A stretch of 32,000 bases of DNA, from the NCBI GenBank assembly GCA_016196885.1, contig JACPWU010000038.1, positions 30,001-62,000 of the forward strand, in the 5' to 3' direction. This DNA is from Chlamydiota bacterium (GTDB taxonomy: Bacteria > Auribacterota > JACPWU01). Shown piece by piece: positions 6,649 to 31,784 of this stretch; within the stretch, counting starts at the first letter, position 1, and each line of letters begins with the position of its first letter. The notes below the pieces were generated by a model that had not been told where the DNA came from, did no database searches, and was given only the letters and a program-made list of their open reading frames with translations. The position numbers were made by a program, and so were the translations under genes.

Positions 6649-7265
6649 AAAAGCAGAAGTCAGAAGACAGAAAACAGAATTCAGAAGACAGAAGTCAGAA
6701 GTCAGAAGTCAGAATAAAAGAAAACCTTATCCATTCTGGATTCTGGATTCTGACTTCTGTTTTCTATCTTCTGACTTCTATCTTTGTTATTCCTGTACAA
6801 GCGCTCAAAATCTCCGATTTTTATCAAGAGGCCAAGGTCGGCCAATGGATTTTGATGAAATCCAGTGATGGGCTTTTGACGCGGACGGCGGTGGTTGCAA
6901 AAGGAGACGGAAGGCTGACGTTGCGTATTCAAAATTTTAAGCAGGACCAGTTGATTTCAGATGCTCAAGAGACCTTCGATGTTGAAAAGGGGAAAATAAT
7001 TTCTGTGATGATTCAAGAGGGCAATCGCGTGAAAGAAATTCTTCCCAAGCAAACAGAGATGGATGATTTCTTTCAAGTGAATTTCCGCCTTTTAGGGGAT
7101 GAATCGGTACAGGTCGAAAAAGGGGACTTCCCTTGTAAGCGCTATAAGGGCATTTTCCGCGATCGTGTCGTGAAGGCCTGGATCAATGACGAAATCCCCA
7201 TTCTTCATTTGGTTAAGATGACGATGCAGGCGGTTGAGGTAGAGCTGGTGGATTATGGAGGATAA
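6645..7265 (+). CDS. Hypothetical exported or membrane-anchored protein (called X here) embedded between comEA and comEC
   Basis: The ATG at 6645 overlaps the comEA TGA (ATGA), and the stop overlaps the comEC ATG (TAATG). The N-terminus has a charged 30 aa stretch, then GFWILTSVFYLLTSIFVIPVQA, then a beta-rich ~150 aa domain. An alternative start at the ATG 6855 would remove the signal anchor. Confidence 0.6.
   Translation: MKKQKSEDRKQNSEDRSQKSEVRIKENLIHSGFWILTSVFYLLTSIFVIPVQALKISDFYQEAKVGQWILMKSSDGLLTRTAVVAKGDGRLTLRIQNFKQDQLISDAQETFDVEKGKIISVMIQEGNRVKEILPKQTEMDDFFQVNFRLLGDESVQVEKGDFPCKRYKGIFRDRVVKAWINDEIPILHLVKMTMQAVEVELVDYGG
6654..6788. repeat. Heptamer-array hairpin H1, word CAGAAGN
   Basis: Nine tandem 7-mers at 6654-6716: cagaagt cagaaga cagaaaa cagaatt cagaaga cagaagt x3 cagaata. 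A 16-nt loop follows. Then eight reverse-complement 7-mers at 6733-6788: attctgg attctgg attctga cttctgt tttctat cttctga cttctat ctttgtt. Confidence 0.9.
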
Positions 7266-9280
7266 TGAAACGTCCCCTTTTTTATCTTTCTCTTTTCTTG
7301 GCCTCAGGCATTTTCATTGCGCATTTTCTTCCCTTTAAATTCTCTTGGTTTTTCGCTTGTGTTTTCCTTCTGGGATTGGCTTGCCTCTTTTTTGTCCAGA
7401 AAGAGAAGACAGCACATCTTCTCCTTTACGCGCTTTTCTTTTTTCTCGGTGCCACCTTGTATGACCTTCGCACTTTTTTTCCTTCCCAGTGCCGCGTGGA
7501 CCAAATTGAATTTTTAAACGGGGAAATTTTTCTTCGCGGGGAAATTCAAAGAAGTGTGGAAATGGGAGGAAGAAAAAATGCCATCATACAGGCCGCTCAG
7601 GTAAAGGATCTTGAAAATCAATGGAAGGACGTGACGGGTTCTGTCTTGGTCAGGTTGCCAGAAAAAATCAAAGAGAATACAATGTATTCTCTTTGCGACT
7701 CGACCCTTTCAGGCAAAGTCATCAGGACCCCTTTTTCAAATGCTTCAAATTCTTCTGGATTTGACGAATGGTTAAAGGCCAATGGGATTTCCTTGGTGGT
7801 GGAGGTTTCAGATCCTAAAGATATTCAGGTCCAGGAAGGCCTTCGTCTCCATGGGGTGAAGCGCCTTCTCACTTCATTAAGGAATTGGGGCGCCGATCAT
7901 TTGACGCGGGGGCTTCCCGCAGATTCTTCTCTTTCCCATTTGTTGCTCGCGATGTTTTTGGGGATTCGAGAAAACTTGGGCACAGAGGTGAAAAACGCCT
8001 TTCTTTATACCAATACGGTTCACATCTTGTCTATTTCAGGTCTTCATCTGGGAATGATTTTGGCGATGGTGTTATTTGGGGTGGGCCTTTTTCCTGTTTC
8101 TAAAAGATGGGCTTCTGGAATCGCCTTGTTCATCATTTGGATTTATGCACTTTTGACGGGGATGGAACCTCCTATTGTCCGATCGGCCATCATGGCCTCT
8201 TTTTTTCTGGTGGGGCGCCTTGCGAGAATGAAAACGGATTTGGCGAATGCCTTGGGAGGAGCTGCCCTCTTGATGTTGATTGTCAATCCTCTTTCCCTTT
8301 TGGATATTGGATTCCAACTTTCCTTTTTATGCATGCTGTCCCTCGTTTTTCTCACGCCCAAAGTCGAAAAGGATTTTGAGCCCATCCATGGAATATTTTT
8401 TAAGACGCCCCTTGTTTTTTTATCGAGCTGGGAGAAAAATCTCTCTCGAGGATTTAATATGTTTATTAAAATTTTGAGTGGGTCGTGCGCGGTTTGGATA
8501 GGGGTGCTTCCCCTGATCGCCTATCATTTTCAGATTTTCTCACCCGTCACAGTTCTTGCAAATGTGATCGCTGTTCCTTGGACGAGCATGATCATGACAT
8601 TGGGATTTGCCAGTTGTGCCTTGGGCTGGATCCCAGGGGTGAGTCAAGCCTTGAATACGGTGAACGGACTTTTGCTGGGGGCCCTTGTAAAAATACTACA
8701 TTATTTTTCAAGCATCCCGGGGGCCTATCTTTTTGTCGAGCGCCCCACCTGGCTGTGGTTTTTTATTTATGATGCGGTCCTTCTCTCTTCTTTCTGGGCC
8801 AAGGGAAAAATCAAAAGTTCTTATTTTCTAATTTCTGCTTTTATTTGGGTGCCTCTTCTTTTTAAATCACCGGATCCTCATTCTTTAAGAATCAAGCTTT
8901 CGTCTCATGAGGTATCATTCCCTCAAGGGAGGGATGACCTTCAGGTATCTAAAACGTTTGATGAAAATGGAAGGTTGGAGACGATTCATTTCGAAAAAAA
9001 TTGGATTCATTGGGGTCTGAAGAATTTGGATCGGTTTTCGCCTCAAGAAAAAGGTTGGCTCGTGATGGATGATTCTTCCTCTGGGAATGAAGAGGCCCTG
9101 TTGAGGGCCGTAGATCGTCTCCCCGTGGCGGGTGTAGTTTTAGAAGACGGATCTTTTGACGCAAGCCTTTTCGCGTTGTTGAGAGACCGGGGGATCGAGA
9201 CCTTTCTCCTTCGAACAGGAATTCTCTTTGAATGGAAAACAGATGGAGAAAACTTTTGGGTTAAACGGGGTCAAACATGA
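7265..9280 (+). CDS. comEC: ComEC/Rec2 DNA internalisation channel protein, without a recognisable metallo-beta-lactamase domain
   Basis: 671 aa. N-terminal TM pair plus a DUF4131-like region, and a polytopic Competence domain (HILSISGLHLG, PPIVRSAIMA). The last ~140 aa show no HxHxDH motif. Confidence 0.85.
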   Translation: MKRPLFYLSLFLASGIFIAHFLPFKFSWFFACVFLLGLACLFFVQKEKTAHLLLYALFFFLGATLYDLRTFFPSQCRVDQIEFLNGEIFLRGEIQRSVEMGGRKNAIIQAAQVKDLENQWKDVTGSVLVRLPEKIKENTMYSLCDSTLSGKVIRTPFSNASNSSGFDEWLKANGISLVVEVSDPKDIQVQEGLRLHGVKRLLTSLRNWGADHLTRGLPADSSLSHLLLAMFLGIRENLGTEVKNAFLYTNTVHILSISGLHLGMILAMVLFGVGLFPVSKRWASGIALFIIWIYALLTGMEPPIVRSAIMASFFLVGRLARMKTDLANALGGAALLMLIVNPLSLLDIGFQLSFLCMLSLVFLTPKVEKDFEPIHGIFFKTPLVFLSSWEKNLSRGFNMFIKILSGSCAVWIGVLPLIAYHFQIFSPVTVLANVIAVPWTSMIMTLGFASCALGWIPGVSQALNTVNGLLLGALVKILHYFSSIPGAYLFVERPTWLWFFIYDAVLLSSFWAKGKIKSSYFLISAFIWVPLLFKSPDPHSLRIKLSSHEVSFPQGRDDLQVSKTFDENGRLETIHFEKNWIHWGLKNLDRFSPQEKGWLVMDDSSSGNEEALLRAVDRLPVAGVVLEDGSFDASLFALLRDRGIETFLLRTGILFEWKTDGENFWVKRGQT

Positions 9281-9298
9281 ACCTTAAAACCTGGAAAT

Positions 9299-10708
9299 TT
9301 AAACCGCTTTCACAATCGTTAATGTCATATCGTCCATCTGGGGAATTCCGCCGGTAAAGCGGGAGATGCGGGAGAGGATGTTTTGGGCAATGTCTTGCGC
9401 GCTCAGATTAAATGCGCTGTGCACGGCTTCAGCCAAGGCCTCATAACCAAATTCATTTCCCTGGGCGTCTTGGGCCTCTGTGATGCCATCGGTGTAAAGA
9501 GCCAGAATATCTCCGGGTTCTAAAATGAGACTCACTTCCTCCAGCGTGGATGTGAAAAGAGGCCCCGCGTCCATTCCTAAGACAATTCCCTGCGGCCTTA
9601 GATATTGAACCTTTGACTCCTTTCTTTCAAAGAAAACAAGAGGCTCGTGACCTGCTCGAGTCAAGGTCAGTTTCTTTCGCTTTTCATCTAAAATTAAATA
9701 GGCCAGGCTGATAAACATGTCCTGTTGAATGTCTACGAAGAGGAGACGATTCAATTCCGAGAGCACTTGCCGGGGCGAGAGTTTTCCAGGGGCAGAGCTT
9801 CTCAAGATGCTTCTCGCCATTGTCATAACGAGGGCGGCAGGAATCCCTTTTCCAGAAACATCCGCGATGACAATCCCGTATTGGCCCTCACCTACCGGAA
9901 AAAAATCATAATAATCTCCTCCGATTTCCCGGGCTGGGCGGCTTAAGCCTCCGACATCAAAGCCCGTAAGCGTAGGAAGACCGGTGGGGAGAAGGAGGCG
10001 CTGGACTTGCATGGCTGTTTTTAATTCTTTGTCTAATCTTTCCTTCTCGGCAATGGTTCGATAAAGTTTGGCATTGTGAATGGATAAAGCAGCCTGATCG
10101 GCGAGGGCCTCCCAGAGGGAAAGATCCGTTTGCGAAAAGGTTTTTCCATCTTCCTTGTTGGCGGCCGCCATGATACCCATCACTTCTTCTTTAAAGATAA
10201 GAGGAACCGCCATGAGCGTTTTCACTTTGAGAAAATCAATGACCGGCTGTGTGATGCGGGAATCTGATACAGCATCTTGAATGAGAAGCGAAGCCCTTTC
10301 CTGGGCCACCCGGCCGAAAATGCCTTCTCCGAGGGGGATTTTGAGCCGCATGATTAAGTCTTGAATGTATTTGGCCTTGGTCGCCAGTTTCGAAAGGGAC
10401 TCTATGGGAATCGCCTCAAAGATAGGAGGAAAAAGGCCGTCCACCATTCCGGCGCTGAGATAATGGTGTTCTTCATCTAGGAGAAAAATAGCGCCGGAAG
10501 AGGCATTCAAGATGCGTCTGGAACTTGTGACAATCAATCTGAAGAGCTCGTCCAATTCGTGAGGGGATGTGAGGGCATCTCCGACTTCTCGGATGAAATG
10601 AAGGACAACCTCTTTCTCTTGGGAAAGCAATTGATGTGCCTTTCGAAGTTCAGAAAGAGAAAGCCAGGTGCGATGACAGAGCAAAGAGAGGAGAATGAGT
10701 CCGATCAA
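9299..10708 (-). CDS. GAF-domain PP2C (SpoIIE/RsbU-type) serine phosphatase
   Basis: N-terminal TM segment, central GAF-like region, and a C-terminal SpoIIE domain with GGDYYDF, ADVSGKGIPAAL, YTDGITEA and DDMTL. The first canonical start is the TTG at 10708. The frame stays open 15 codons further upstream, back to a TAAGGAG. Confidence 0.85.
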   Translation of the reverse strand: MIGLILLSLLCHRTWLSLSELRKAHQLLSQEKEVVLHFIREVGDALTSPHELDELFRLIVTSSRRILNASSGAIFLLDEEHHYLSAGMVDGLFPPIFEAIPIESLSKLATKAKYIQDLIMRLKIPLGEGIFGRVAQERASLLIQDAVSDSRITQPVIDFLKVKTLMAVPLIFKEEVMGIMAAANKEDGKTFSQTDLSLWEALADQAALSIHNAKLYRTIAEKERLDKELKTAMQVQRLLLPTGLPTLTGFDVGGLSRPAREIGGDYYDFFPVGEGQYGIVIADVSGKGIPAALVMTMARSILRSSAPGKLSPRQVLSELNRLLFVDIQQDMFISLAYLILDEKRKKLTLTRAGHEPLVFFERKESKVQYLRPQGIVLGMDAGPLFTSTLEEVSLILEPGDILALYTDGITEAQDAQGNEFGYEALAEAVHSAFNLSAQDIAQNILSRISRFTGGIPQMDDMTLTIVKAV

Positions 10709-10763
10709 CGATAAGGCTAAAATAAGAGAATGAAAAGCGATTTTAGGGACTCCTTATGAAAGA

Positions 10764-10955
10764 CAATTGAAAATTAATAATGGATCATTAAAAATTATTG
10801 GCATATGCACTTGATTCCCCTTAGATAGCAAGCGCCATGGCAAGAAGTTGTAGTCACCCCATTCATGGGGCTGTGCCCCTTGCATGGGTTTGCCCGATGA
10901 ATCGGGCGACTACAAAGGGGAATCAAGTGCATATGCCTATTATTAATTTTCAATT
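10764..10955. repeat. Composite nested palindrome (MITE-like island) between the STAS and PP2C genes
   Basis: Perfect 17-bp outer inverted repeat: AATTGAAAATTAATAAT (10765-10781) with ATTATTAATTTTCAATT (10939-10955). Perfect 23-bp inner inverted repeat: GGCATATGCACTTGATTCCCCTT (10800-10822) with 10915-10937. The GC-rich REP-like core sits at 10850-10913. Confidence 0.85.
10850..10913. repeat. REP-like multi-hairpin module, copy 1 (three hairpin units)
   Basis: GTAGTC [ACCCCA ttca TGGGGC] tgt [GCCCCT tgca TGGGTT] t [GCCCGA tgaa TCGGGC] GACTAC. The clamp and units match copy 2 at 24943-24987. Confidence 0.8.
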
Positions 10956-10958
10956 CTG

Positions 10959-11456
10959 TTATCCCTTGTTCTTGTTAATCTCTTCCTTTAAATATTCATA
11001 CACATCTTTAAATTTTATTTTATTCTCTTCAGAGATTTCCATGAGAACCGCATGGGCCTTGAGCATTTCTTGCGCCGTGTTTGATTTTGAGGTTTCTACG
11101 GCGGGAAGTGTTTCAAGCTGGACAGGTTCTTCTAACTCATGGGGAACGATGTTTAAAAAAATGTGAATGCCAAGCGTGGTGAGGAGTTGCAGATTGTGTT
11201 CTTCTACGTGGAAGAGCGTTATTTTTTTCTGATATTTATTTTTCAGCTGTAAGGCAGTCCCGGCCAAAACACCCATGAAAGTGCTGTCCATCGTCTTACA
11301 TTCTTTGAGATCAATCAAAAAATCTGTCAGCCCTTTTTCCATCATGGTATTGATGAAATCTTTCAGTGCCTGGCTGTTCAAAAAATCGCCACGTCCTTTG
11401 ACTTTGACAAAAACTTTTTGATGGGTGGTTCCGACTTCAATGGCCCCTGTTTCCAT
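10959..11456 (-). CDS. STAS-domain protein (anti-sigma-factor-antagonist-like) with a ~60 aa C-terminal extension
   Basis: 165 aa. VKVKGRGDFLNSQALKDFI...FLIDLKECKTMDSTFMGVLAG fits the STAS fold, with Ser/Thr at the usual phospho-site position. Lies upstream of the PP2C gene on the same strand. Confidence 0.7.
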   Translation of the reverse strand: METGAIEVGTTHQKVFVKVKGRGDFLNSQALKDFINTMMEKGLTDFLIDLKECKTMDSTFMGVLAGTALQLKNKYQKKITLFHVEEHNLQLLTTLGIHIFLNIVPHELEEPVQLETLPAVETSKSNTAQEMLKAHAVLMEISEENKIKFKDVYEYLKEEINKNKG

Positions 11457-11523
11457 GTTGCTTTCCTATGGTCTTTCTTTTCAATAAAGAATAAAATGTA
11501 GAGTCTAATTTGGGAACAAACGT

Positions 11524-13143: not shown

Positions 13144-13554
13144 ATGAAGCAATGTCTCATGTTAGGTGTCATGTCTGTGATTGCTTTAATGATGGCAGGT
13201 TGCAGTGATTTTGAGGATCCGACGAAGAAAATAAGTTTGGAGACGGTGGTAGGAGGAGGTCCTTCCCTGAAGCTGGGAATGACAAAAGATGAGGTGAAGG
13301 CGAGCTGGGGAAATCCGGACAATGTCAAGGCGACCGGAGAAAATCGATGGGGAGCTCCTAGGGAAGAGTGGACGTATCACGCTTGGTTTCCCGTGGTTCC
13401 CGTGAATTATAAATATGTTTCTAAGGGCCGGCGTCTTTTCTTTGAGGGAGATGCCTTGGTGAAGTGGGAGGAGACTGAAGTAGAACAAACGAAGACAGAA
13501 GACAGAGGTCAGAAGACAGAGACTTCAACGAAGGAACCAGAAACTCAAAATTAA
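13144..13554 (+). CDS. BamE/SmpA-OmlA-like lipoprotein with a low-complexity tail
   Basis: Lipobox LMMAGC, and GMTKDEVKASWGNPDNV typical of the SmpA_OmlA domain. The C-terminal tail TKTEDRGQKTETSTKEPETQN is encoded by heptamer arrays. Confidence 0.65.
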   Translation: MKQCLMLGVMSVIALMMAGCSDFEDPTKKISLETVVGGGPSLKLGMTKDEVKASWGNPDNVKATGENRWGAPREEWTYHAWFPVVPVNYKYVSKGRRLFFEGDALVKWEETEVEQTKTEDRGQKTETSTKEPETQN

Positions 13555-13574
13555 AAACTCAAAACTTGAAACTG
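13489..13574. repeat. Two adjacent unpaired heptamer arrays H2 (CAGAAGN-type, then AAAACTN)
   Basis: 13489-13523: acgaaga cagaaga cagaggt cagaaga cagagac. 13540-13574: gaaactc aaaatta aaaactc aaaactt gaaactg. No complementary arm nearby. The arrays span the stop of the lipoprotein gene and the TTG start of the next gene. Confidence 0.8.
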
Positions 13575-15074: not shown

Positions 15075-15152
15075 TCCACGGTCCATAGTCCATAGAAATA
15101 AATGATTCCTTTAAAGCTGTGGACTATTGACTATGGACTGTAGACTGTTTTT
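15067..15152 (+). terminator. Heptamer-array hairpin H3 (word GTCCATA) acting as a rho-independent terminator
   Basis: Left arm gtccata gtccacg gtccata gtccata (15067-15094), 22-nt loop, right arm ctgtgga ctattga ctatgga ctgtaga ctg (15117-15147), then TTTTT (15148-15152). The nagZ-like TAG stop lies inside the first unit. Confidence 0.7.
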
Positions 15153-15202
15153 ATCCACTTGAGTGGACGAAAGTTTGTGGAGAAGGTTATTGAGTAAATA
15201 AT

Positions 15203-15430
15203 ATGAAAATTTATAAGAGAGCTATTTACAATAGGTTACAGATTAGACTGGCCGAGTCAAGAGGGCTGATCCAAGTGTTAATAGGCTCTCGGCAAGTGGG
15301 AAAAACAACATGGGTCGGGTAGGTATTGGAGCTTATTCAAGAGCCCACCCATTTTGTTTCTGCGGACGAGCCGACACTTCACGATCGGGTCTGGCTTGAG
15401 GAACAGTGGAATCGCGCTAGCCCTACAGCC
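15203..15430 (+). pseudogene. Decayed N-terminal fragment of an AAA-family ATPase (AAA_14 / DUF4143-type)
   Basis: MKIYKRAIYNRLQIRLAESRGLIQVLIGSRQVGKTTWVG, then an in-frame TAG (15320-15322), then VLELIQEPTHFVSADEPTLHDRVWLEEQWNRA in the same frame. Walker A is present. The remaining ~300 aa of such proteins are missing. Confidence 0.6.
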
Positions 15431-23957: not shown

Positions 23958-24004
23958 AAAGAATCAAAACTGTACGCTGTCCGCTGAACGCTATACGCTT
24001 CCTT
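23925..24004. repeat. Heptamer-array hairpin H7 (word AGCGNAC / CTGNNCG)
   Basis: Left arm agcgtac agcgtgt aggattc agcggac agtagaa (23925-23959; it encodes the last 10 aa and the stop of the GT28 gene). Loop. Right arm ctgtacg ctgtccg ctgaacg ctatacg cttcctt (23970-24004). A perfect 12-bp core TTCAGCGGACAG / CTGTCCGCTGAA. Confidence 0.9.
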
Positions 24005-24015: not shown

Positions 24016-24894
24016 ATGCTGCTGGCAGTGCTCTATCACATCTTAAGGTGGATTGTGAATGTATTCCCTTTCTCTTGGGGGATGAAATTATTTTCTGCCT
24101 CTTTTGCCTTCGGATATTGGTTTTGCCCTCAAAGACGTCGCATCATTGAAGAAAATCTTTCCGTCATCTTGCCAAATACGAATCTTGAAAAAAACGTGAA
24201 GGAAGTTTTTGCTTTTTTTGGTCGCTACTTGGCGCTTTTTTTAAGCTCTACGAAGAGAAAAGAAAATTTGAGAAGGATGACGAGAACGCAAGGGCTTGAA
24301 AATCTCATTCGTCCTTATCAGGGGGGGAGAGGGGTGATTGCCTTAACTGCTCATTTGGGCAATTGGGAAATGGGGGCGTATTTGGTTGTCCGCGAGGGGA
24401 TGAAGGTGAGCGCCGTTTTCATGAATCATGACAATGATCGAGCCAATCGTTTGTTCATCGCCCAAAGAGATGTGCCAGGTTTGACGGTGATCCCTTGGGG
24501 GGATCATGCGACCTCCAAATGTTTGGAGGCATTGAAGGCGGGTCACGTTTTAGCCATTGCGGGCGATATTGATTTTTTGGGAAATGGAATGGAGGTCAAT
24601 CTTTTCGGGAAAAGGGTGCGAATTCCGAAAGGGCCCATTGTTCTTGCAAAGAGAAGGGGAGTTCCGATTGTGCCCGGAGGATATGTTTGGACGGATTCGG
24701 GAGGACTTTTTTTCTTTGAGAACCCCATTTTATCGGAAGGTCTTTCAGAAGAGATGTTGGCCAGTCGTGTCGCTGGGGCCCTCGAAAAAATGATTCGGAA
24801 ATATCCAACGCAGTGGTTGTGTTTTGAGAGGATGTGGAAGATAAAGAATCCAAAATCCAAAAATCAAAATGACTCTTTGCAAGAGTCATTTTAA
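24016..24894 (+). CDS. LpxL/HtrB-family lysophospholipid or lipid A-type acyltransferase
   Basis: 292 aa. LTAHLGNWEM (HX4E acyltransferase motif of the Lip_A_acyltrans family) and an N-terminal membrane segment. Confidence 0.8.
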   Translation: MLLAVLYHILRWIVNVFPFSWGMKLFSASFAFGYWFCPQRRRIIEENLSVILPNTNLEKNVKEVFAFFGRYLALFLSSTKRKENLRRMTRTQGLENLIRPYQGGRGVIALTAHLGNWEMGAYLVVREGMKVSAVFMNHDNDRANRLFIAQRDVPGLTVIPWGDHATSKCLEALKAGHVLAIAGDIDFLGNGMEVNLFGKRVRIPKGPIVLAKRRGVPIVPGGYVWTDSGGLFFFENPILSEGLSEEMLASRVAGALEKMIRKYPTQWLCFERMWKIKNPKSKNQNDSLQESF

Positions 24895-25068
24895 ATTTTG
24901 ATCTGTCATTTTGATTTTTGCTATGAAAGTGAGGCTCATTTTGTAGTCGCCCCATTTATGGGGCTGCCCGATGAATCGGGCGACTACAAAAAAAGCATGA
25001 TGGGGAGAACTTTCATCGCACACGATGATCTCGAAAGATCATTGGAATTGATATTTGAATTTTGGATT
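24847..25068. repeat. Composite island H8: heptamer arms (AAAATCC / ATTTTGN) enclosing nested palindromes and REP-like copy 2
   Basis: Left arm aatccaa aatccaa aaatcaa (24847-24867). Perfect 12-bp palindrome AAAATGACTCTT tgc AAGAGTCATTTT (24866-24892). 13-nt ATTTTGATTTTTG (24908-24920) is complementary to the left arm. REP module at 24943-24987. Hairpin GATGATCT cgaa AGATCATT (25024-25043). Distal arm TTGAATTTTGGATT (25055-25068) is complementary to 24847-24860 with one mismatch. Confidence 0.85.
24943..24987. repeat. REP-like multi-hairpin module, copy 2 (two hairpin units)
   Basis: GTAGTC [GCCCCA ttta TGGGGC] t [GCCCGA tgaa TCGGGC] GACTAC. The same 6-bp clamp and terminal unit as copy 1. 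Confidence 0.85.
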
Positions 25069-25093
25069 TATCTTGGAAAGGTATGACTAAAGT

Positions 25094-26423: not shown

Positions 26424-26441
26424 TTATAAAAAGAATAGTTA

Positions 26442-26504
26442 TAAGTTTTAAGTTCTAAGTTTTAAAGGAGTTTATTTTTTTACTTACAACTTACAACTTC
26501 TAAC
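26442..26504. repeat. Heptamer-array hairpin H9 (word TAAGTTN / ACTTACA)
   Basis: Left arm taagttt taagttc taagttt (26442-26462), T-rich loop, right arm acttaca acttaca acttcta ac (26482-26504). Preceded by a 15-nt direct repeat agaatagttataaaa x2 (26417-26446) that contains the pcm stop. Confidence 0.85.
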
Positions 26505-26512
26505 CGCTTTCC

Positions 26513-26587
26513 CGGGGTGTGGCTCAGCCTGGCTAGAGCGCTTGGTTCGGGACCAAGAGGCCGGCGGTTCAAATCCGCCCACCCCGA
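26513..26587 (+). tRNA. tRNA-Pro (anticodon CGG)
   Basis: Hand-folded cloverleaf. Acceptor CGGGGTG/CACCCCG, D arm GCTC-AGCCTGGCTA-GAGC, anticodon arm CTTGG-TTCGGGA-CCAAG, 5-nt variable loop, T arm GGCGG-TTCAAAT-CCGCC, discriminator A. CCA is not encoded. Confidence 0.95.
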
Positions 26588-26602
26588 TGGTTTTTAAAAA
26601 AA

Positions 26603-26660
26603 AGGGTCAGGGGTCATCTATGAAAACGTCTTTTTTTCCTGACCCTTGACCCTTGACCCT
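26603..26660. repeat. Heptamer-array hairpin H10 (word AGGGTCA / CTTGACC)
   Basis: Left arm agggtca ggggtca (26603-26616), loop, right arm tgaccct x3 (26640-26660). Same word family as H12. Confidence 0.85.
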
Positions 26661-26671
26661 TGGATGAAAAC

Positions 26672-28339
26672 ATGCATGGCCTTCTTACCAATATTGGAAC
26701 GGCGTTAATTGCAGCAACCTTGATGGGCATTCTTGCCTTTCGACTGCGGCAGCCTGTCATTTTGGGTTACTTGATCGCGGGCGCTTTTGTGGGCCCTGAA
26801 ATGGGTTTGAAGCTTGTCAGTGATCCCCTCAACATTGAAATCATTTCAGAAATCGGTTTGATTCTTCTTCTTTTCATCATTGGTTTGGAACTCAATCTTC
26901 AGAAGGTCATTGCTTCTGGAAGGCAATTGCTGGTGGTTGGCATCGGCCAATTTCTTTTTTGCGTGATTTTGGGACTTTTGATTTTTCCAATGCTAGGCCT
27001 GGGACTCAAGGGTGGAAATTTAGATGGCCTTTATCTTTCTCTTCTTTGTGCGTTGAGCAGCACGGCGATTGTGGTGAAGCTCCTCTATGATAAATTTGAA
27101 CTGGATACCTTGTCGGGTCGTCTCACCTTAGGAATTCTCGTGATTCAAGATTTATGGGCGATTTTAATTTTGGCTGTTCAGCCCAATTTTGCGAATCCAC
27201 GATGGAGCCTTTTGGCACTTGCGATTTTAAAGAGTGGGGGACTTCTCGCTGCGGGTTTTATTTTGAGCCGATTTTTTTTGAAGCCTATTTATGAATGGGT
27301 GGCGAAATCTCCCGAGATGGTGGTGGCGACCTCCATGGGCTGGTGTGCCTTGGTTTCTTATGGGGCGGGGGCCTTGGGACTTTCCAAGGAAATGGGTGCC
27401 CTTATTGCAGGAATTTCCATTTCCAGTTTTCCTTACAGTATTCATGTGACCGCCAAAACATTGCCCCTTCGCGATTTCTTTCTCACTTTATTTTTCGTCT
27501 CTTTGGGAATGAAAATTGTTGTGCCTTCCATGACGATGATTCTAGCTAGCCTAGGACTCGTCGTGTTTGTGGTCCTTTCTCGCTTTCTCACAGTGTATCC
27601 TCTTCTGATGTTCTCGGGAGGAGGGCGCCGCACTGCTTTTATCACGAGCCTCAATGTGTCTCAAGTGAGTGAGTTTTCTCTGGTCATCGCCCTTTTGGGC
27701 GTCGGCTATGGGCATCTGGGTGAAAAATTAATGGCCGTGATGATTTACACCATGGCCTTTACGGCGGTCATTTCTTCTTATGCGATTAAATTTAGCCATG
27801 AGATTTATCAGATTTTTGATTTTGTGATTAGAAAATGCGGGTGGGTGAGGAAGGTGGATGTTCAAGAAAAAGTGGAAGAAGAGAAACATTACCCCGTTGT
27901 GATTTTGGGTTTTCATCGGGGGGCGCGGTCCTTGATCGAGATGGTTCAGGAGAAAAATCCTCATTTACTTTCAGAAATGCAGGTGATTGATTTTAACCCT
28001 GAGATTTTAAAGGAATTAAAGCGCATGAACATTGCGGCTCTTTTTGGAGATATCAGCAGCCTAGACACCTTGAAACATGCGCATTTGGAGCATGCCCAGG
28101 TTATTCTCTGCACGATTCCAGACATGCTTTTAAAAGGGGTGAATAATTTGAAGCTCGTGAAATTGTGCCGCTCCCTTGCCCCCCGTGCTATTCTGGTGGC
28201 CACGGCGGATTCCTCCGTCCAGGCTGAAAAATTGAAGGCGGCCGGGGCGAGCGAAGTTTTGCTTCCCTACGTGATGACGGGGAAGTTTTTGTCGTATTTT
28301 CTGGAGGAGAATTTGGCATCTTCTGAAAAGGGAAAATGA
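26672..28339 (+). CDS. CPA2-family monovalent cation:proton antiporter (Kef-type) with a C-terminal RCK/TrkA-N domain
   Basis: About 380 aa polytopic Na_H_Exchanger region, then VVILGFHRGARSL...VIDFN...GDISS Rossmann-like RCK region with a degenerate GxGxxG. I prefer the ATG at 26672. The TTG at 26660 lies inside the repeat. Confidence 0.85.
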   Translation: MHGLLTNIGTALIAATLMGILAFRLRQPVILGYLIAGAFVGPEMGLKLVSDPLNIEIISEIGLILLLFIIGLELNLQKVIASGRQLLVVGIGQFLFCVILGLLIFPMLGLGLKGGNLDGLYLSLLCALSSTAIVVKLLYDKFELDTLSGRLTLGILVIQDLWAILILAVQPNFANPRWSLLALAILKSGGLLAAGFILSRFFLKPIYEWVAKSPEMVVATSMGWCALVSYGAGALGLSKEMGALIAGISISSFPYSIHVTAKTLPLRDFFLTLFFVSLGMKIVVPSMTMILASLGLVVFVVLSRFLTVYPLLMFSGGGRRTAFITSLNVSQVSEFSLVIALLGVGYGHLGEKLMAVMIYTMAFTAVISSYAIKFSHEIYQIFDFVIRKCGWVRKVDVQEKVEEEKHYPVVILGFHRGARSLIEMVQEKNPHLLSEMQVIDFNPEILKELKRMNIAALFGDISSLDTLKHAHLEHAQVILCTIPDMLLKGVNNLKLVKLCRSLAPRAILVATADSSVQAEKLKAAGASEVLLPYVMTGKFLSYFLEENLASSEKGK

Positions 28340-29193
28340 AAATGGAAGCAGATTTTTACAAATACCATGCATTGGGAAATGATTATATTGTCATGGATTC
28401 CAACAAGACAAAGATCAAGCTCACTTCCAAAAATATTAAGCTCATCTGCGATCGAAATTTTGGGGTGGGCTCAGACGGAATTCTCTATGGACCTGTTCTT
28501 GAAAAAGGCAGGATTTCTTTAAGAATTTTTAATCCAGATGGAAGCGAGGCAGAAAAAAGTGGAAATGGAATCCGTATTTTTTCTCGGTTCTTGATGGAGG
28601 CGGGGTATGTCCATGCAAAGAATTTTTCTTTACAAATCTTAGGGGGTCTTGTCGAGGTTGAGATTTTGAATGATGTGGGATCACTGATTAAAGTAAACAT
28701 GGGGAAAGTCACTTTTCAAAGCGATCTCATTCGTGTGAAGGGGCCCGTTCGGGAAGTGGTCGAAGAGGAATTAAAGGTGGGGGATCACGCTTATCGTATG
28801 ACGTGTCTTTCGATCGGCAATCCCCATTGCGTGATTCTAATGAAAGAAATTTCAAAAAAAATGGCGATGGAATTAGGCCCTCTCGTCGAGCATCATTCTC
28901 TTTTTCCAAATCGCATCAACCTGCAGCTTTTGAAAGTGCTGGATCGGAAAAATATTCAAATTGAGATTTGGGAGCGCGGGGCCGGTTATACCTTGGCTTC
29001 CGGCTCCAGCAGTTGTGCGGCTGCCAGTGCAGCCTACAAATTGGGGCTTGTAGATACAGATTTAAAAGTTCACATGCCGGGCGGGGTGATTGAAATTGAA
29101 ATTGAAAAAAATGGGCATGTGCATATGACGGGTGTTGTGAGCTCTGTAGCTCAAGGTGAATTTTCAGAGGAATTTCGTAAGAAATTAATGTGA
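28336..29193 (+). CDS. Diaminopimelate-epimerase-family protein with both catalytic Cys replaced by Ser
   Basis: YHALGNDYIVMD, FNPDGSEAEKSGNGIRIFSRF, GNPHCVI and WERGAGYTLASGSSSCAAA align with DapF motifs, but with AGT (Ser) and TCC (Ser) at the two catalytic Cys positions. The ATG overlaps the antiporter TGA (ATGA). Confidence 0.85.
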   Translation: MKMEADFYKYHALGNDYIVMDSNKTKIKLTSKNIKLICDRNFGVGSDGILYGPVLEKGRISLRIFNPDGSEAEKSGNGIRIFSRFLMEAGYVHAKNFSLQILGGLVEVEILNDVGSLIKVNMGKVTFQSDLIRVKGPVREVVEEELKVGDHAYRMTCLSIGNPHCVILMKEISKKMAMELGPLVEHHSLFPNRINLQLLKVLDRKNIQIEIWERGAGYTLASGSSSCAAASAAYKLGLVDTDLKVHMPGGVIEIEIEKNGHVHMTGVVSSVAQGEFSEEFRKKLM

Positions 29194-29194
29194 A

Positions 29195-31030
29195 ATGGTT
29201 AAAACATCCACCCAAACTTTAAAGAATTTTAACTATCGCTGGGCTTGGCAATTTAAATCAAGTCCAGAAGAGCTTTGGCCTTTGGTTTCAGACACCAATC
29301 GCTTCAATTTTGAAATGGGGATGCCGCCTCTTTCTAAAACTGCCTCCAATGGCAAAAGGGTTTTGAGTTTCTCTCGGTTGGGAATCAAGATGACATGGGA
29401 GGAAATTCCTTTTGAATGGGTTCGTCCCTACCGGTTTGGGGTGATTCGGCGGTATTGCGAAGGGCCATTGGAAGAAATGAGAATTCACATAGAGCTCCTC
29501 CCCCTTTCCAACTCTCAAGGGACAGAGATGGTCTGCCAAATTGGATTAAGTCCCAAAAGGAAAGTTCGATGGATGCTGCTGTTTCTTCCCATCGAGCAAA
29601 GAATGGGGAAGTCCTTCGAAAAAATTTTTAGAGGATATGATGTCCTTTTGATCCAGGAAAATCTTTCGTCTTCGGGTTCCACTCAAAAACCCAAACGGGT
29701 GAAGGGGTCAGAAAAACGGCTGAACTTTTTAAAAGAAAATTTGCTGAAGGAAAATGTCTCGGCGGATTTAGTAAACCAGTTGATTAAACTGGTTGAATGG
29801 GGGGATGATTTGACGGTCCGTCGGATGAGGCCCTATGTTTTTGCAGATCATTGGCATGTTTCGAGAAAGACCGTGTTAGAGCTGTTTCTTTTGGCGACCC
29901 GGACGGGGCTTTTGGAAATGAGTTGGGATTTGCTGTGCCCGATGTGCCGAGGTTCTTCCGAAAGCCATTCTCATCTGGATGAAATCAAGACCCATTCGCA
30001 TTGCGACGGGTGTAACATGGATTTTACGATTAACTTTGACCGCCTGGTCGAATTGACATTTAAGCCGAATCCCTCGATTCGTCAGGCCGAGGGAAAATTA
30101 TTTTGTTTGGGGGGACCCCAGATGACACCGCATGTGATGCTTCAGCAATCTCTTTTGCCGGGTGAAAAGCGCTCTGTCCAGGCGATGCTTGAAAAGGGGC
30201 GCTATCGGCTGAGAACGTGCAGTGTGCCCGGGGCCCAGTATTTGAACGTGGAGAAAGAGGGTGCTTCGGAAATTTTCTTCACTGCAAATTCACGCGGCTG
30301 GTCTGAGAAAGAACTGTCTTTAACCAGAGAGGCCAAAATATCACTCGAAAATCAAACCGACCGTCCTCAAACTTTTTTTCTGGAGCGGACAAAATGGTCG
30401 GATCAGGCTGCGACAGCAGCCGAGGTGATCGCCCTTCAAAGGTTTAGGGATCTTTTTTCTGAAGAGGTTTTACGCCCCGGAGAACACGTCTCGGTCGGAA
30501 GCATCAGTATTCTTTTTACGGATTTGAAAGGTTCCACGCGTCTTTATCGAGAGGTAGGGGATGCCCCGGCCTTTGGTTTGGTCATGAATCATTTTGATGT
30601 TCTCAAAGAGGCCATCTTGGCTGAGGATGGAGCGATTGTGAAAACGATTGGAGATGCGGTGATGGCTGTTTTTAAACAGCCTTTGGGTGCCTTGAAGGCT
30701 GCGTTTGAAGCTGAAAAAAAATTGGCGTCGCCTCCCACGGGAACAAAGCCCTTGTTTTTAAAAGTGGGCCTTCATTATGGTCATGCGATTGCGATTAATT
30801 TAAACGAGCGCTTGGATTATTTTGGCTCGACGGTGAATTTGGCCGCTCGTCTTGGAGCGCTTTCCAAGGGGCAGGATGTGATTGTTTCAGATAGCATTTA
30901 TCGTGATCCCGAGGTTTCAGAATGGATTCGTTCCGAGCCTCACCTTCAGGTAGAGTCAGTCAAAGCCCTTCTCAAAGGCTTTGAAGAAGAGCATTTTGAC
31001 CTCTGGAGGGTTGCTGTAAAAAAGTCTTAA
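29195..31030 (+). CDS. Class III adenylate cyclase with an N-terminal SRPBCC-like region and a Cys4 zinc-ribbon-like middle domain
   Basis: C-terminal ILFTDLKGST, KTIGDAVMAVF, LDYFGSTVNLAARL (metal Asp pair, Lys/Asp specificity pair, Asn/Arg). Middle CPMCRGS...HCDGCN. The start lies 1 nt after the DapF-like stop. Confidence 0.85.
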   Translation: MVKTSTQTLKNFNYRWAWQFKSSPEELWPLVSDTNRFNFEMGMPPLSKTASNGKRVLSFSRLGIKMTWEEIPFEWVRPYRFGVIRRYCEGPLEEMRIHIELLPLSNSQGTEMVCQIGLSPKRKVRWMLLFLPIEQRMGKSFEKIFRGYDVLLIQENLSSSGSTQKPKRVKGSEKRLNFLKENLLKENVSADLVNQLIKLVEWGDDLTVRRMRPYVFADHWHVSRKTVLELFLLATRTGLLEMSWDLLCPMCRGSSESHSHLDEIKTHSHCDGCNMDFTINFDRLVELTFKPNPSIRQAEGKLFCLGGPQMTPHVMLQQSLLPGEKRSVQAMLEKGRYRLRTCSVPGAQYLNVEKEGASEIFFTANSRGWSEKELSLTREAKISLENQTDRPQTFFLERTKWSDQAATAAEVIALQRFRDLFSEEVLRPGEHVSVGSISILFTDLKGSTRLYREVGDAPAFGLVMNHFDVLKEAILAEDGAIVKTIGDAVMAVFKQPLGALKAAFEAEKKLASPPTGTKPLFLKVGLHYGHAIAINLNERLDYFGSTVNLAARLGALSKGQDVIVSDSIYRDPEVSEWIRSEPHLQVESVKALLKGFEEEHFDLWRVAVKKS

Positions 31031-31096
31031 TCCATTTTAGTAGAAGTAGTTGTGTCATTCGTCTTTTCACTTTTTTTATTCTCCCCTTTTCTTCCT

Positions 31097-31125
31097 TTGG
31101 CAAACACCTGAATAAATTGTAGAAT
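31097..31125 (+). promoter_or_regulatory. Putative sigma70-type promoter of bcp
   Basis: TTGGCA (31097-31102), 17-nt spacer, TAGAAT (31120-31125). This places hairpin H11 in the 5' UTR. Confidence 0.4.
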
Positions 31126-31143
31126 CGGCCCCTGATGAAGTTC

Positions 31144-31213
31144 CGTGCTTCGTACAGCGGTGTTCTTTTCGAAGTACGATGTACGAAGTTCGATGTTTTG
31201 TGTTCTGGTACTT
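31144..31213. repeat. Heptamer-array hairpin H11 (same family as H6)
   Basis: cgtgctt cgtacag cggtgtt cttttcg / aagtacg atgtacg aagttcg atgtttt gtgttct ggtactt. Shares CGTGCTTCGTACA and CGATGTACGA-GTTCGATG with H6. Ends 8 nt before the SD GGAGGG at 31221-31226. Confidence 0.85.
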
Positions 31214-31232
31214 AATAAAAGGAGGGTTTCAT

Positions 31233-31712
31233 ATGGTCGGGGAATCTTTAAGGGTGGGTGCCTTGGCGCCGGAGTTTTCTTTGTTGGATCAAGATGAAAA
31301 GAAGGTGAGCCTGAAAGATTTTAAAGGCAAATGGGTGATTCTCTATTTTTATCCCAAGGACAATACGCCGGGCTGTACGCGGGAGGCGATTGGTTTTACA
31401 GAGGACCTCGGAGTTTTTAAAAAACTCAGCGCTGTGATTTTAGGGGTAAGCCCGGATTCTTCGCAAAGCCATTGCAATTTTATTGAATCTCAAAAGTTGA
31501 AAATTACGCTTTTGAGTGATCCCGAGCACGGTGTTTTGGAGGAATATGGCGCTTGGGGATTGAAGAAAAATTATGGCAAGGAATATTGGGGTGTGATTCG
31601 GAGCACTTTTTTAATAGATCCCAAAGGAAATCTTGCCTTCGTATGGCCGAATGTAAAAGTAGACGGGCATGTGGAGAAGGTGTTGGAGAAGTTGAAGGAA
31701 TTGGGAAAGTAG
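31233..31712 (+). CDS. bcp: Thioredoxin-dependent peroxiredoxin Bcp
   Basis: APEFSLLDQDEKKVSLKDFKGKWVILYFYPKDNTPGCTREA. ATG at 31233, 6 nt after GGAGGG. The ORF-track extension from 31179 is translated repeat. Confidence 0.93.
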   Translation: MVGESLRVGALAPEFSLLDQDEKKVSLKDFKGKWVILYFYPKDNTPGCTREAIGFTEDLGVFKKLSAVILGVSPDSSQSHCNFIESQKLKITLLSDPEHGVLEEYGAWGLKKNYGKEYWGVIRSTFLIDPKGNLAFVWPNVKVDGHVEKVLEKLKELGK

Positions 31713-31784
31713 GGTCAAGGGTCAAGAGAAAGATAAATACCTTTAAACTCTTGACCCATGACCCCTGCAGCTTGACCCTTCTTT
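31711..31784. repeat. Heptamer-array hairpin H12 (word AGGGTCA / CTTGACC)
   Basis: Left arm agggtca agggtca agagaaa (31711-31731), loop, right arm cttgacc catgacc cctgcag cttgacc cttcttt (31750-31784). The bcp TAG stop abuts the first unit. Confidence 0.85.

Follow-up and report, generated by a model that had tools for sequence, protein, structure and literature searches.

The window analyzed here, a 32-kb stretch of the genome of a groundwater MAG labeled Chlamydiae at NCBI, whose nearest named relatives are Ca. Auribacterota, carries tandem arrays of 7-nt words between its genes and at gene ends (Table 1). At least eight unrelated words sharing a single period were found, and ten loci (A, C, F, G, H, I, J, K, L, and M) form inverted-array hairpins, so that the recurring word families and the hairpin organization reported in a preliminary description of this DNA were both recovered. 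TRF returned 42 rows for the window, 29 of them with a period of 7, 14, or 21, at the positions given in that description. Locus counts refer mostly to 6649–32000, where 13 spacers are 40 nt long or longer; nine of these held a clear array, two a weak one (16156–16172 and 18257–18284), and two none (10709–10958 and 11457–11523), in line with the earlier statement that most spacers longer than about 40 bp contain such arrays. No array was seen in the three spacers of such length located before 6649.

Table 1. Heptamer arrays and hairpins identified in the window.
Feature	Coordinates	Strand	Arrays, arms, and position	Method or folding score
Hairpin A	6650–6790	+	CAGAAGN ×9 (6654–6715) against NTTCTGN ×7.5 (6733–6784)	TRF
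Locus B	13489–13574	+	Direct arrays GAAGACA ×4.3 (13491–13520) and AAACTNA ×3.7 (13541–13573)	
C-type element	15055–15162	+	GTCCAYA arms 15066–15095 and 15117–15148; hairpin 15066–15148; T-run 15149–15154	
Locus D	16156–16172	+	Minor direct array ACGATAA ×2.4, just upstream of obg	TRF
Locus E	18257–18284	+	Weak degenerate direct array CGTNNTT ×4, proB–proA spacer	
Locus F	19551–19811	+	AAAATCC-type arm 19556–19575; GATTTTG-type arrays 19771–19803	Folding z = −4.6
Hairpin G	22465–22531	+	CGTGCAT/CGAACAT arm against CGATGTA arm, argS–lipoyl protein spacer	Folding z = −4.9
Hairpin H	23925–24004	+	AGCGNAC 5′ arm against CTGTACG ×4.3 3′ arm	
Locus I	24847–25073	+	AAAATCC/AAAATCA arm 24847–24871; complementary arm 24893–24920; hairpin 24847–24920	
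Hairpin J	26437–26504	+	TAAGTTN arm against ACTTACA arm, pcm stop codon to tRNA-Pro	
Hairpin K	26602–26662	+	AGGGTCA ×2 against TGACCCT ×3.3 (perfect run)	
Hairpin L	31137–31197	+	CGTGCTT/CGTACAG arm against CGAAGTA/CGATGTA arm	
Hairpin M	31711–31784	+	AGGGTCA arm against TGACCCN arm; overlaps bcp stop codon TAG	

The period is strictly 7 and was observed only outside coding sequence and at the very ends of genes. The identity at lag 7 in the non-coding DNA (2.7 kb) was 0.352, compared to 0.262 ± 0.009 in 300 dinucleotide shuffles (z = 10.4), confirming the enrichment implied by the preliminary description; the excess was found at this lag only, since lags 4–6 and 8–11 gave z ≤ 2.4, and was absent from CDS interiors (25.9 kb, identity 0.245). 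Stretches of 10 or more successive lag-7 matches occurred five times in non-coding DNA (shuffle mean 0.02) and never in CDS interiors. A lag-7 array detector reported 15 arrays in the 32 kb, i.e., 47 per 100 kb, approximately 25 times the density of 1.8 per 100 kb obtained with the same detector in 490 kb of unrelated bacterial loci. The dominant words were identical in three pairs of loci, when 0.11 pairs were expected (P(≥2) = 0.005).

That the arrays result from an assembly or binning artefact has practically no chance of being correct. Logan short-read contigs often break within arrays (L036 at its end, 6710; L031 at its start, 15070; and L041 at its end), but the Logan assemblies of two other runs matched the window at 100% over 1–6710, 13712–19484, and 26531–32000, other independent contigs spanned arrays C, D, E, K, L, and M as well as the L037 counterpart of hairpin A at 100% identity, and the same elements were recovered in four further genomes that come from different studies. 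The available assemblies did not differ in unit number, which counts against the dispersed repeat families proposed below.

The arrays had been described as intergenic, which applies to most loci but not to A, B, H, and I, where they overlap coding sequence; arrays overrun stop codons and rewrite protein tails. Hairpin A lies wholly inside the CDS 6645–7265, whose ATG overlaps the TGA of comEA and for which the NCBI annotation gives an identical 206-aa product, and encodes the 53-aa pre-sequence (signal peptide) of a secreted protein; the homologues of this protein are 172–180 aa long, with a signal peptide ending in QA before LKISDFY. Its inverted repeats I1–I3 are 79–87% complementary, with an MFE of −59 kcal/mol (z = −6.7), and the L037 ortholog has the same architecture, with an in-CDS hairpin of 52 aa instead of 53 and the frame kept. 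At locus B, which has no hairpin, array 1 encodes the E/K/T-rich C-terminal tail of a lipoprotein (13144–13554) whose relatives likewise possess an E/K-rich tail, and array 2 covers the lipoprotein stop codon and extends over the start of the gene that follows. The 5′ arm of hairpin H is located inside the MGDG-synthase CDS and rewrites its final ~9 residues, with the stop codon TAG (23955–23957) at the loop and the 3′ arm in the spacer; the same word was also present upstream of obg in L041. At locus I, the arm 24847–24871 encodes a 17-aa C-terminal extension of an LpxL-like protein, and a GTAG-tagged REPIN-like palindrome (24934–24996) separates the hairpin from an additional GATTTTG-type array (25048–25073).

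Among the other loci, the hairpin of locus F starts at the proA stop codon, and its arms are split by an unrelated structured insert of ~170 nt. Hairpin G starts 4 nt past a stop codon, is directly followed on its 3′ side by a Shine–Dalgarno sequence (GGAGG), and has an arm that is 87% complementary over 30 nt to an arm of hairpin L. Hairpin K starts 15 nt after tRNA-Pro (26513–26587). The start expected for a promoter-like site (31097–31125) lies ~5 nt upstream of hairpin L, which would thus correspond to the 5′ end of the bcp mRNA, not to a 3′ end. The spacer of locus E gave a lag-7 z of 2.4 without a TRF call. Upstream of locus D, the tract 16122–16155, first read as complement-like to CAGAAGN, turned out to be a T/C-rich segment of the rpmA–obg spacer that is conserved across the clade and is not an array.

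The C-type element, which provides the last codons and the TAG stop of a GH3 gene, has a conserved loop (AAATAAATGATTCCTTTAAAG) and is, as previously noted, the only locus with a T-run, the nine other hairpins lacking a U-tract. A promoter-like site (15464–15492; 11/12 promoter match) is found after it, before rplU. Its orthologous copy in L037 is 84% identical, versus ~71% for the flanking CDS, and a covariance model detected a further copy, in reversed orientation, in L034 (E = 4e-10). The copies (one in the window, two in L037, and one in L034) occur in both orientations. Across these three genomes, at orthologous as well as non-orthologous sites, they keep the loop and the ends, one copy being shorter by exactly 7 nt in the three-copy alignment. 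C-type words were also present in L029 and L041, and a metagenome scan using the exact pattern of the loop revealed no further copies. The loop motif is common to three hairpins that have different arm words: it is found in reverse orientation in hairpin J, and the loop of hairpin M (AGATAAATACCTTTAAAC) is related to it.

The two arms differ by exactly one 7-nt unit in hairpin H and by 14 nt in hairpin A, and the perfect runs (CAGAAGT)3, (ATTCTGG)2, and (TGACCCT)3 have no mirror in the opposite arm, the loop-proximal units being homogenized separately, arm by arm. Together with the 7-nt indel between C-type copies, these differences argue for slippage, and not for selection of a perfect stem, which agrees with the unit-by-unit turnover first proposed. 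Entire elements, including arms, loop, and ends, also recur across genomes whose LeuRS proteins are only ~75% identical, and segment 24889–24920 of locus I matches L037 3963–3994 at 97% (32 nt, AAAATCA family). Occupancy is patchy, the equivalent spacers in relatives being empty and 11–30 nt long. Neither a transposase nor a target-site duplication, nor any other sign of a copying process, was detected in the window and related loci, which counts against dispersed repeat families. The occurrence of so many unrelated words with one period speaks for a property inherent to replication or repair, and not for sequence recognition, an origin already proposed for heptamer SSRs in general (PMC4679880; PMC4692102).

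These repeats are real, common to the clade, and resemble the heptamer repeats known from cyanobacteria and Xanthomonas. From the 32 kb of this genome examined, we give an even chance to the view that they represent dispersed palindromic repeat families of ~60–130 nt, whose stems are degenerate heptanucleotide microsatellites, and which form an STRR-like class in an uncultured PVC-group lineage. Most likely, the heptamer hairpins are semi-selfish DNA that is prone to slippage, and not a new regulatory system. An element may start from a palindromic seed, possibly an ordinary 3′-end stem-loop, that would lengthen in 7-nt steps via slipped-strand mispairing, while inter-arm templating would keep the arms roughly complementary. 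Copies would reach new sites by a putative copying process, for example via recombination or through an enzyme acting in trans, and would persist where tolerated, i.e., in spacers, C-terminal tails, and one signal-peptide coding region. When transcribed, they would form stable RNA hairpins directly after cistrons, probably acting as 3′-exonuclease barriers or weak terminators, although this effect would be incidental and would not explain why they exist.

It is rather unlikely that the hairpins are instead selected RNA elements (terminators without a U-tract, 3′-end stabilizers, or processing sites) serving as punctuation in long operons of co-directional genes, with the heptamer texture as no more than the way in which long stems get built. 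At nine of the ten loci, the hairpin starts no more than 15 nt from the preceding stop codon or tRNA end, or the two overlap. Five hairpins directly adjoin the preceding stop codon or run into it, also where the spacer is long (C and M), which fits a 3′-end function and counts against dispersed repeat families. Canonical terminator-like sites were not enriched (16 versus 21.5 expected; 20 versus 22 expected), so that something else must end transcripts, and locus C combines a T-run with the subsequent promoter match. Hairpin C is more conserved than the flanking CDS; this, like the frame and length kept in hairpin A, suggests a constraint beyond neutrality and also counts against dispersed repeat families. 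The Xanthomonas heptamer repeats are transcribed and located near stop codons (PMC4692102). However, the same operon junctions in relatives are short and hairpin-free, orientation varies (the L034 element and the J loop are reversed), hairpin A is translated, hairpin L follows a promoter-like site, and two L037 hairpins lie in promoter-side spacers between divergent genes. The stems (25–55 bp, AT-rich) tolerate periodic mismatches, and no strand asymmetry of the G·U type was observed, the folding energy being lower on the + strand at eight loci and on the − strand at six. We also regard as unlikely that the hairpins are non-autonomous mobile elements (REPIN/PATE/MITE-like) moved by a trans-acting enzyme, e.g., a hairpin-recognizing HUH/Y1 transposase, with the arrays as secondary decay or growth of the stems. 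The non-orthologous C-type copies within and between genomes, the AAAATCA-family match, the loop motif shared by hairpins with different arm words, and the classical REPIN-like palindrome in the same genome (PMC3733652) would be expected in such a case; against it, no transposase gene lies in the window or the related loci, neither target-site duplications nor a defined insertion motif were seen, the exact-pattern metagenome scan found no additional copies, and the strict 7-nt period common to unrelated words is not accounted for by a transposase.

Binding of a protein with a 7-nt register was suggested in the preliminary description and has been proposed for TAACTGA repeats (PMC4679880); the candidates would be an OB-fold/cold-shock-type single-strand binder or a duplex-binding regulator. 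The strict period, the conservation of words across genomes at ~75% protein identity, and the binding of one CspB protein per heptamer (PMC4679880) are compatible with it, but we consider it very unlikely, since eight or more unrelated words, present in both orientations, are beyond what one sequence-specific protein can read, the units are part of stable duplex stems and not of single strands, and no candidate gene was identified. The selfish, slippage-prone DNA also evoked there is supported as to slippage, but not as to purely local slippage. That the arrays are local microsatellites, each produced in situ without dispersal or common ancestry, is hardly credible and already largely refuted: locus B does arise from a purine-rich segment encoding an E/K-rich tail, as in relatives, and the words are many and their occupancy patchy, but identical words are shared by loci far above chance, whole elements with loop and ends are similar at non-orthologous sites, and an inverted layout at 10 loci is impossible by slippage alone.

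The STRR heptanucleotide sequences of heterocystous cyanobacteria, reportedly described by Mazel et al. in 1990, a study cited in PMC4692102, are a fair precedent, as had been proposed. Like the repeats described here, they are imperfect 7-nt tandem arrays that fall into several word families in each genome; they are dispersed, lie mostly between genes, are conserved across genera, and have no assigned function. They differ by their cyanobacterial host, and no tandem STRR1–3 words were found in the window, where, in contrast to STRR, most arrays are paired as hairpins that behave as discrete elements with conserved loops.

The inverted arrays, the multiple word families, and the link with stop codons had been thought to be undescribed, but inverted heptamer pairs near stop codons in Xanthomonas (PMC4692102) and heptamer hairpins in Nostoc (PMC3488679) are already published. 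Rehm et al. (2015) reported GGGAATC and GGGGA(C/T)T repeats in Xanthomonas and Nostoc (PMC4692102), which are also intergenic heptamer SSRs. In Xanthomonas, 70–75 convergent inverted GGGAATC pairs per genome, capable of forming stem-loops, are enriched between co-directional ORFs, at ≤50 bp from or overlapping a stop codon, and are transcribed; their length differs between species but their type is kept (PMC4692102). In contrast to the several words found here, none of which is G4-competent, these repeats consist of a single G-rich, G-quadruplex-capable word; the elements described here are conserved in loop and ends and reach into coding sequence. In the P6b hairpin of the Nostoc trnL tRNA-Leu(UAA) intron (Costa et al. 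2002, as described in PMC3488679), degenerate heptanucleotide repeats on the two sides pair with each other, and variants differ in unit copy number and by insertion of unrelated sequences, an insertion of the kind also present at loci F and I; it is one locus in a cyanobacterial group I intron and not, as would be the case here from the 32 kb examined, a genome-wide spacer feature. The TAACTGA direct repeats of Beggiatoaceae, cyanobacteria, and Bacteroidetes (MacGregor 2015; PMC4679880) are also abundant intergenic heptamers at gene boundaries that occasionally overlap ORF ends, but involve one word, absent from the window, which is almost always direct (1 inverted/170) and just upstream of start codons (PMC4679880).

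Intrinsic (Rho-independent) terminators are likewise stem-loops directly after stop codons, and locus C has their T-run; the other hairpins differ from them by the missing U-tract, by long, AT-rich, and mismatched stems, and, for some, by a position in promoter-side spacers or inside a CDS. REP/REPIN sequences, which are GTAG- or CGTC-tagged palindromes mobilized by RAYT (PMC3116915, PMC3733652), are also dispersed extragenic palindromes between co-directional genes, in both orientations, with families conserved within a clade and no target duplications. Unlike the heptamer hairpins, their stems are 20–40 nt long, GC-rich, and non-periodic, and neither GTAG/CGTC tags on the heptamer hairpins nor a RAYT gene were seen. 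The GTAG-tagged REPIN-like element of locus I represents a separate family beside the heptamer hairpins.

Arrays with a 7-nt period were recovered by TRF at the positions where the preliminary description had placed them, 29 of the 42 TRF rows having a period of 7, 14, or 21. The part of this genome covered was the 32-kb window with ~3.5 kb of flanking sequence. That description had also proposed a comparison of non-coding and coding DNA against dinucleotide shuffles. In the 32-kb window, lag-7 identity in non-coding DNA was 0.352 versus 0.262 ± 0.009 in the shuffles (z = 10.4), and the excess was found at lag 7 only, the z-score never rising above 2.4 at the other lags from 4 to 11. CDS interiors carried a period-3 signal only. 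All fifteen arrays lay in the 2.7 kb of non-coding DNA or at its edge, the 25.9 kb of CDS interior being free of them, and the density in the window reached 47 per 100 kb; unrelated bacterial loci totalling 490 kb gave 1.8 per 100 kb. Among the 13 spacers of 40 nt or more that follow position 6649, nine contained clear arrays, two contained weak ones, and two none; arrays were absent from all three such spacers before this position. The tract at 16122-16155, initially listed as complement-like, proved not to be an array but a T/C-rich segment following rpmA in the rpmA-obg spacer, which is conserved in the clade (9830-9870 in contig L029 and 9805-9845 in L033). Inverted-array hairpins were found at ten loci, with folding z-scores of −4.5 to −6.7 where the hairpin fills the spacer. 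Independent Logan assemblies from two runs matched the window at 100% over C, D, E, K, L, and M.

Positions of the heptamer arrays (loci A-M), of copies of the C-type element (the GTCCAYA-arm hairpin family named after locus C), and of neighbouring features; coordinates are those of the window.
Feature	Position	Location	Remarks
Locus A	6650-6790	whole hairpin inside ORF 6645-7265	
Locus B	13489-13574		
Locus C	15055-15162	after GH3	C-type copy
Locus D	16156-16172		
Locus E	18257-18284		
Locus F	19551-19811		
Locus G	22465-22531		
Locus H	23925-24004		
Locus I	24847-25073		
Locus J	26437-26504		
Locus K	26602-26662		
Locus L	31137-31197		
Locus M	31711-31784		
C-type copy		L037, orthologous site	84% identity vs ~71% in flanking CDS
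C-type copy		L037, divergent spacer, non-orthologous	
C-type copy		L034, proA-nadD spacer, reverse orientation	covariance model E = 4e-10
REPIN-like double palindrome	10760-10960 (core 10848-10916); 24934-24996		GTAGTCGCCCCATTTATGGGGC / GCCCGATGAATCGGGCGACTAC; GTAG-tagged, non-heptamer
Sigma-70-like near-consensus promoter	3381-3409	before leuS	TTGTCA-17-TATAAT
Sigma-70-like near-consensus promoter	15464-15492	before rplU	TTGACA-17-TATAGT
Sigma-70-like near-consensus promoter	31097-31125	before bcp	TTGGCA-17-TAGAAT

The genes of the window are housekeeping genes; almost all are encoded on the + strand, and the whole window has a strongly positive GC skew. They encode, in order, Memo, LeuS, ComEA, a small secreted protein, ComEC, SpoIIE/GAF, STAS, and TPR proteins, a lipoprotein, GH3, RplU, RpmA, and Obg, followed by ProB, ProA, NadD, RsfS, ArgS, a lipoyl protein, an MGDG synthase, an LpxL-like acyltransferase, GT2, Pcm, tRNA-Pro, an Na/H exchanger, DapF, a cyclase, and Bcp. 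Obg matched MBI3266710.1, a protein of a groundwater MAG labelled "Chlamydiae bacterium" at NCBI, at 100% identity; its next relatives were ~70% identical and everything else was at or below 56%, the best of these matches outside the clade belonging to Aquificota, Auribacterota, and Firmicutes. For protein X, the product of CDS 6645-7265, the nearest named relative was Ca. Theseobacter exili (Ca. Auribacterota, PVC group). The Obg match and the Theseobacter affinity show that the host is not a cyanobacterium, an origin ruled out by gene content and exact protein matches. On these protein similarities, the NCBI label fits poorly, and the lineage is probably a poorly sampled PVC group. Syntenic relatives (L029/L039, L033, L034, L041, and L037, a second MAG, GCA_016178055.1) were used for comparison, with LeuRS 74-76% and Obg ~70% identical to those of the window. 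GTDB species genomes sought as close relatives via ProA were rejected, the best match being only 58% identical, and the loci retrieved in this way were reused as the 490 kb of negative controls. An exact look-up of the window's ProA gave no record. The window organism and a hairpin-rich sister species (L037/L038) occur together in groundwater sample SRR12113387 (L031, L035, L036, L038), and comEA and comEC are present in both. Exchange of elements between the two might be a reason for their common families.

Several Logan short-read contigs end inside arrays: L036 ends at window position 6710, L031 starts at window position 15070, L038 ends at position 15020 of L037, and L041 ends at 4442-4466. 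Such repeats therefore fragment short-read assemblies and are probably under-represented in MAGs. They also mislead start-codon calls in MAG annotation; in a mechanical ORF list, start codons were pushed into arrays, for instance at 22441, 31179, and 19789.

The arrays had been described as intergenic. However, arrays A, B, H, and I encode parts of proteins, and at loci C and M the stop codon comes from the element itself. Array B encodes the lipoprotein tail, the last residues of the MGDG synthase are rewritten at locus H, where the stop codon lies at the loop, and the LpxL-like protein gains at locus I a 17-aa C-terminal extension that is missing in three relatives. The ATG of the protein X gene overlaps the comEA stop codon (ATGA), with a GAGG 10 nt upstream. 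Homologues of protein X, of 172-180 aa, have an ordinary signal peptide ending ...QA|LKISDFY. In the window, the 5' arm of hairpin A encodes a charged 30-aa n-region and the 3' arm encodes the hydrophobic core (GFWILTSVFYLLTSIFVIPVQA), no alternative start codon is present between the two, and the NCBI product, of 206 aa, agrees. The L037 ortholog also has a hairpin-encoded pre-sequence (52 aa versus 53 aa in the window), which reads MKKTEDRGQRVEDGSQKTEVRGQNKKSLFSVFCFLFSVFCLL.... The perfect complement of (CAGAAGT)n is (ACTTCTG)n, the continuous reading of which puts an in-frame TGA every 21 nt; the 3' arm of hairpin A contains ATTCTGG and TTTCTAT variants instead of ACTTCTG. Part of its periodic mismatch is probably due to stop-codon avoidance, as these variants suggest. 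The window displays both the costs and the opportunities of such DNA, with rewritten protein tails and a signal peptide drawn from both hairpin arms.

The arms of hairpin H differ in length by exactly 7 nt, those of hairpin A align with an offset of 14 nt, one C-type copy is short by exactly 7 nt, and the perfect runs (CAGAAGT)3 (at 6694-6714), (ATTCTGG)2, and (TGACCCT)3 (at 26640-26660) are each confined to one arm. These differences indicate recent tandem duplication occurring separately in each arm and giving mismatches spaced 7 nt apart, thus corroborating the unit-by-unit turnover proposed earlier.

Some words recur between loci. The same dominant word was found in three locus pairs (F-I, G-L, and K-M), versus 0.11 expected, and A and B have units in common. 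The C-type element has ends ATGAAAATGAG...TTTTTATCCAC, GTCCAYA arms, and a loop AAATAAAT-N3-TCCTTTAAA. Its words were also found in L029 and L041, and the H word GCTGTAC was present upstream of obg in L041. Members of the AAAATCA family at unrelated loci of the window and L037 were 97% identical over 32 nt. Hairpins M and J also contain the C-type loop motif, in J in reverse, although their arm words differ, which suggests an older core around which concerted evolution may exchange the arm words. By the detector used on the window, array density varied widely among the relatives, with 26 per 100 kb in L037 versus 0-7 in the others, where weaker arrays are visible by eye beyond this count. Occupancy is patchy: operon junctions that carry hairpins in the window are 11-30 nt long and empty in relatives, and hairpins A and C are absent from L039. 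Covariance-model matches to A, J, M, and H (E = 1e-4 to 0.04) were set aside as homologues because any long hairpin with an AT-rich loop scores by structure alone, and a metagenome scan with the exact C-type loop pattern returned one chance match, without a hairpin. The GH3 gene of L037 (17279-18328), called at 349 aa versus ~500 aa in the window (13566-15074) and L039, is truncated or frameshifted immediately upstream of the C-type hairpin there.

As in the heptamer SSR or STRR-like class, 7-nt units are over-represented here and dispersed at many non-coding loci. A passage of PMC4679880 drawing on a 2007 survey gives heptanucleotide repeats as the most abundant long-SSR class in many prokaryotes, and their proposed cause is slippage of a polymerase with a ~7-nt footprint (PMC4679880; PMC4692102). 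Cyanobacterial STRRs sensu stricto belong to heterocystous cyanobacteria, whereas the present host is a PVC-group MAG, and no tandem dimer of STRR1 CCCCAGT, STRR2 TTGGTCA, or STRR3 CAACAGT was found on either strand of the window. Xanthomonas genomes contain 70-75 inverted pairs of GGGAATC repeats, transcribed and located between co-directional ORFs near or over stop codons (PMC4692102), and in the trnL P6b region of Nostoc, degenerate heptanucleotide repeats form a hairpin that varies in unit number and contains foreign inserts (PMC3488679). The architecture thought to be undescribed has therefore already been published. The ten pairs of the window resemble this type in being convergent, flanked by co-directional ORFs, and near or over stop codons, which five of the ten abut or overlap, but they are not G4-competent, whereas each Xanthomonas/Nostoc unit has a G3+ tract. 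No G4 motif overlaps any array in the window, and the AGGGTCA family has just 2-3 G tracts per strand, versus the at least four units needed for the G4 type. TAACTGA repeats are direct and adjoin start codons (PMC4679880), and this word does not occur anywhere in the window. As for a catalogued family, tRNA-Pro was the only Rfam match in the window at the gathering threshold, which no hairpin reached; at E ≤ 1, hairpins matched miRNA-precursor models only, far below threshold. Small ORFs behind SD-like AAAGGAG motifs in the loops were rejected on inspection, no start codon following. To our knowledge, 35 years of work, almost all of it on cyanobacteria and Xanthomonas, have not explained the origin and function of heptanucleotide repeats. 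Elhai et al., in 2008, reportedly described small elements nested in heptamer repeats among the small dispersed repeats of Nostoc. We did not find described the combination of a PVC-group host, many non-G-rich words, a hairpin translated as a signal peptide, and discrete elements with conserved loops and ends common across genus-level divergence.

Many unrelated words obeying one strict period point to a mechanical cause, such as the step size of replication or repair, while dispersed, conserved element families point to copying or constraint; this lineage is thus a compact case separating two processes that are usually lumped. The explanation we favour, although we would put its chances at about even, is that these are heptamer-armed palindromic repeat elements, which would grow by 7-nt slippage, spread to new sites by some route, and be tolerated at gene boundaries, any effect on RNA 3' ends being secondary. 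A single protein reading a 7-nt register, as previously envisaged, is implausible, since the unrelated words number at least eight and occur in both orientations. There are two main rivals. That the hairpins are selected at RNA 3' ends, as their frequent contact with stop codons might indicate, seems unlikely to us. Intrinsic terminators have a GC-rich stem of 5-20 bp with a U-tract within 2 nt, which the hairpins do not fit; only C has a T-run (TGTTTTT after the stem), as first noted. A consensus terminator scan of the window called none of the hairpins, and canonical sites were not enriched. Folding energy, compared between the + and − strands as a sign of RNA-level selection, showed no consistent bias, and thus no sign of selection at the RNA level only, while stem covariation in the C-type element amounted to one compensatory pair among three copies, too few to inform.

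Mobilisation by an enzyme, as for REPINs, might account for the dispersed families, but we find it rather improbable. REP/REPIN sequences are short, GC-rich, imperfect palindromes tagged at one end with GTAG or CGTC and associated with a cognate RAYT (Y1 transposase) gene, whereas the heptamer hairpins are AT-rich, 60-130 nt long, and untagged; GTAG ends are confined to the REPIN-like element at 24934-24996 and 10848-10916, separate from these hairpins. MITEs are related to an IS element and have terminal inverted repeats between target-site duplications; such inverted repeats are trivially present in an element that is one long palindrome, and no duplication was visible at the ends of the three C-type copies. 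More speculative, and in our opinion quite improbable, is the idea that this PVC-group clade maintains heptamer-arm palindrome families, 80-97% identical across genus-level divergence, through a dedicated recognition or copying activity, and has exapted one hairpin as signal-peptide coding sequence, one arm encoding the charged n-region and its complement the hydrophobic core. If this were true, slippage could turn the gene on and off, since a one-unit change shifts the reading frame.

Other structured sequences were observed near the arrays. One REPIN-like copy is nested (10709-10958) in a 250-nt almost perfect palindrome with ~60-nt arms (MFE −102 kcal/mol, z = −9.3), and the other lies between heptamer arrays. 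In L039, which has few heptamer hairpins, MITE-like elements of ~200 bp (3295-3548 and 19349-19567; also 10535-10654) are built around CCCCCGAT-N4-ATCGGGG palindromes, the core of which is related to the CCCGATGAATCGGG core of the window REPIN-like element. At locus F, a unique structured insert of ~170 nt (19600-19765), without similarity to the other loci compared, splits the two heptamer arms and recalls the foreign inserts of Nostoc P6b. The leuS-comEA spacer (5921-6075) is GC-rich and strongly structured (MFE −76 kcal/mol, z = −2.3); it contains no heptamers, matches nothing in Rfam, and is not repeated in the other loci compared. That of L037 (9256-9416) also contains a GC-rich palindrome.

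Hairpin J ends 8 nt before tRNA-Pro(CGG) (26513-26587) and K starts 15 nt after it (26437-26662 overall); since tRNA-Pro lacks hairpins in the relatives, its processing must tolerate them in the window. Upstream of obg, L029, L033, and L034 have an extended −10-like TGGTATAAT/TGTACAAT, which is missing from the much shorter obg spacer of the window. Finally, transcription from the promoter-like site before bcp would give an mRNA with hairpin L at its 5' end.
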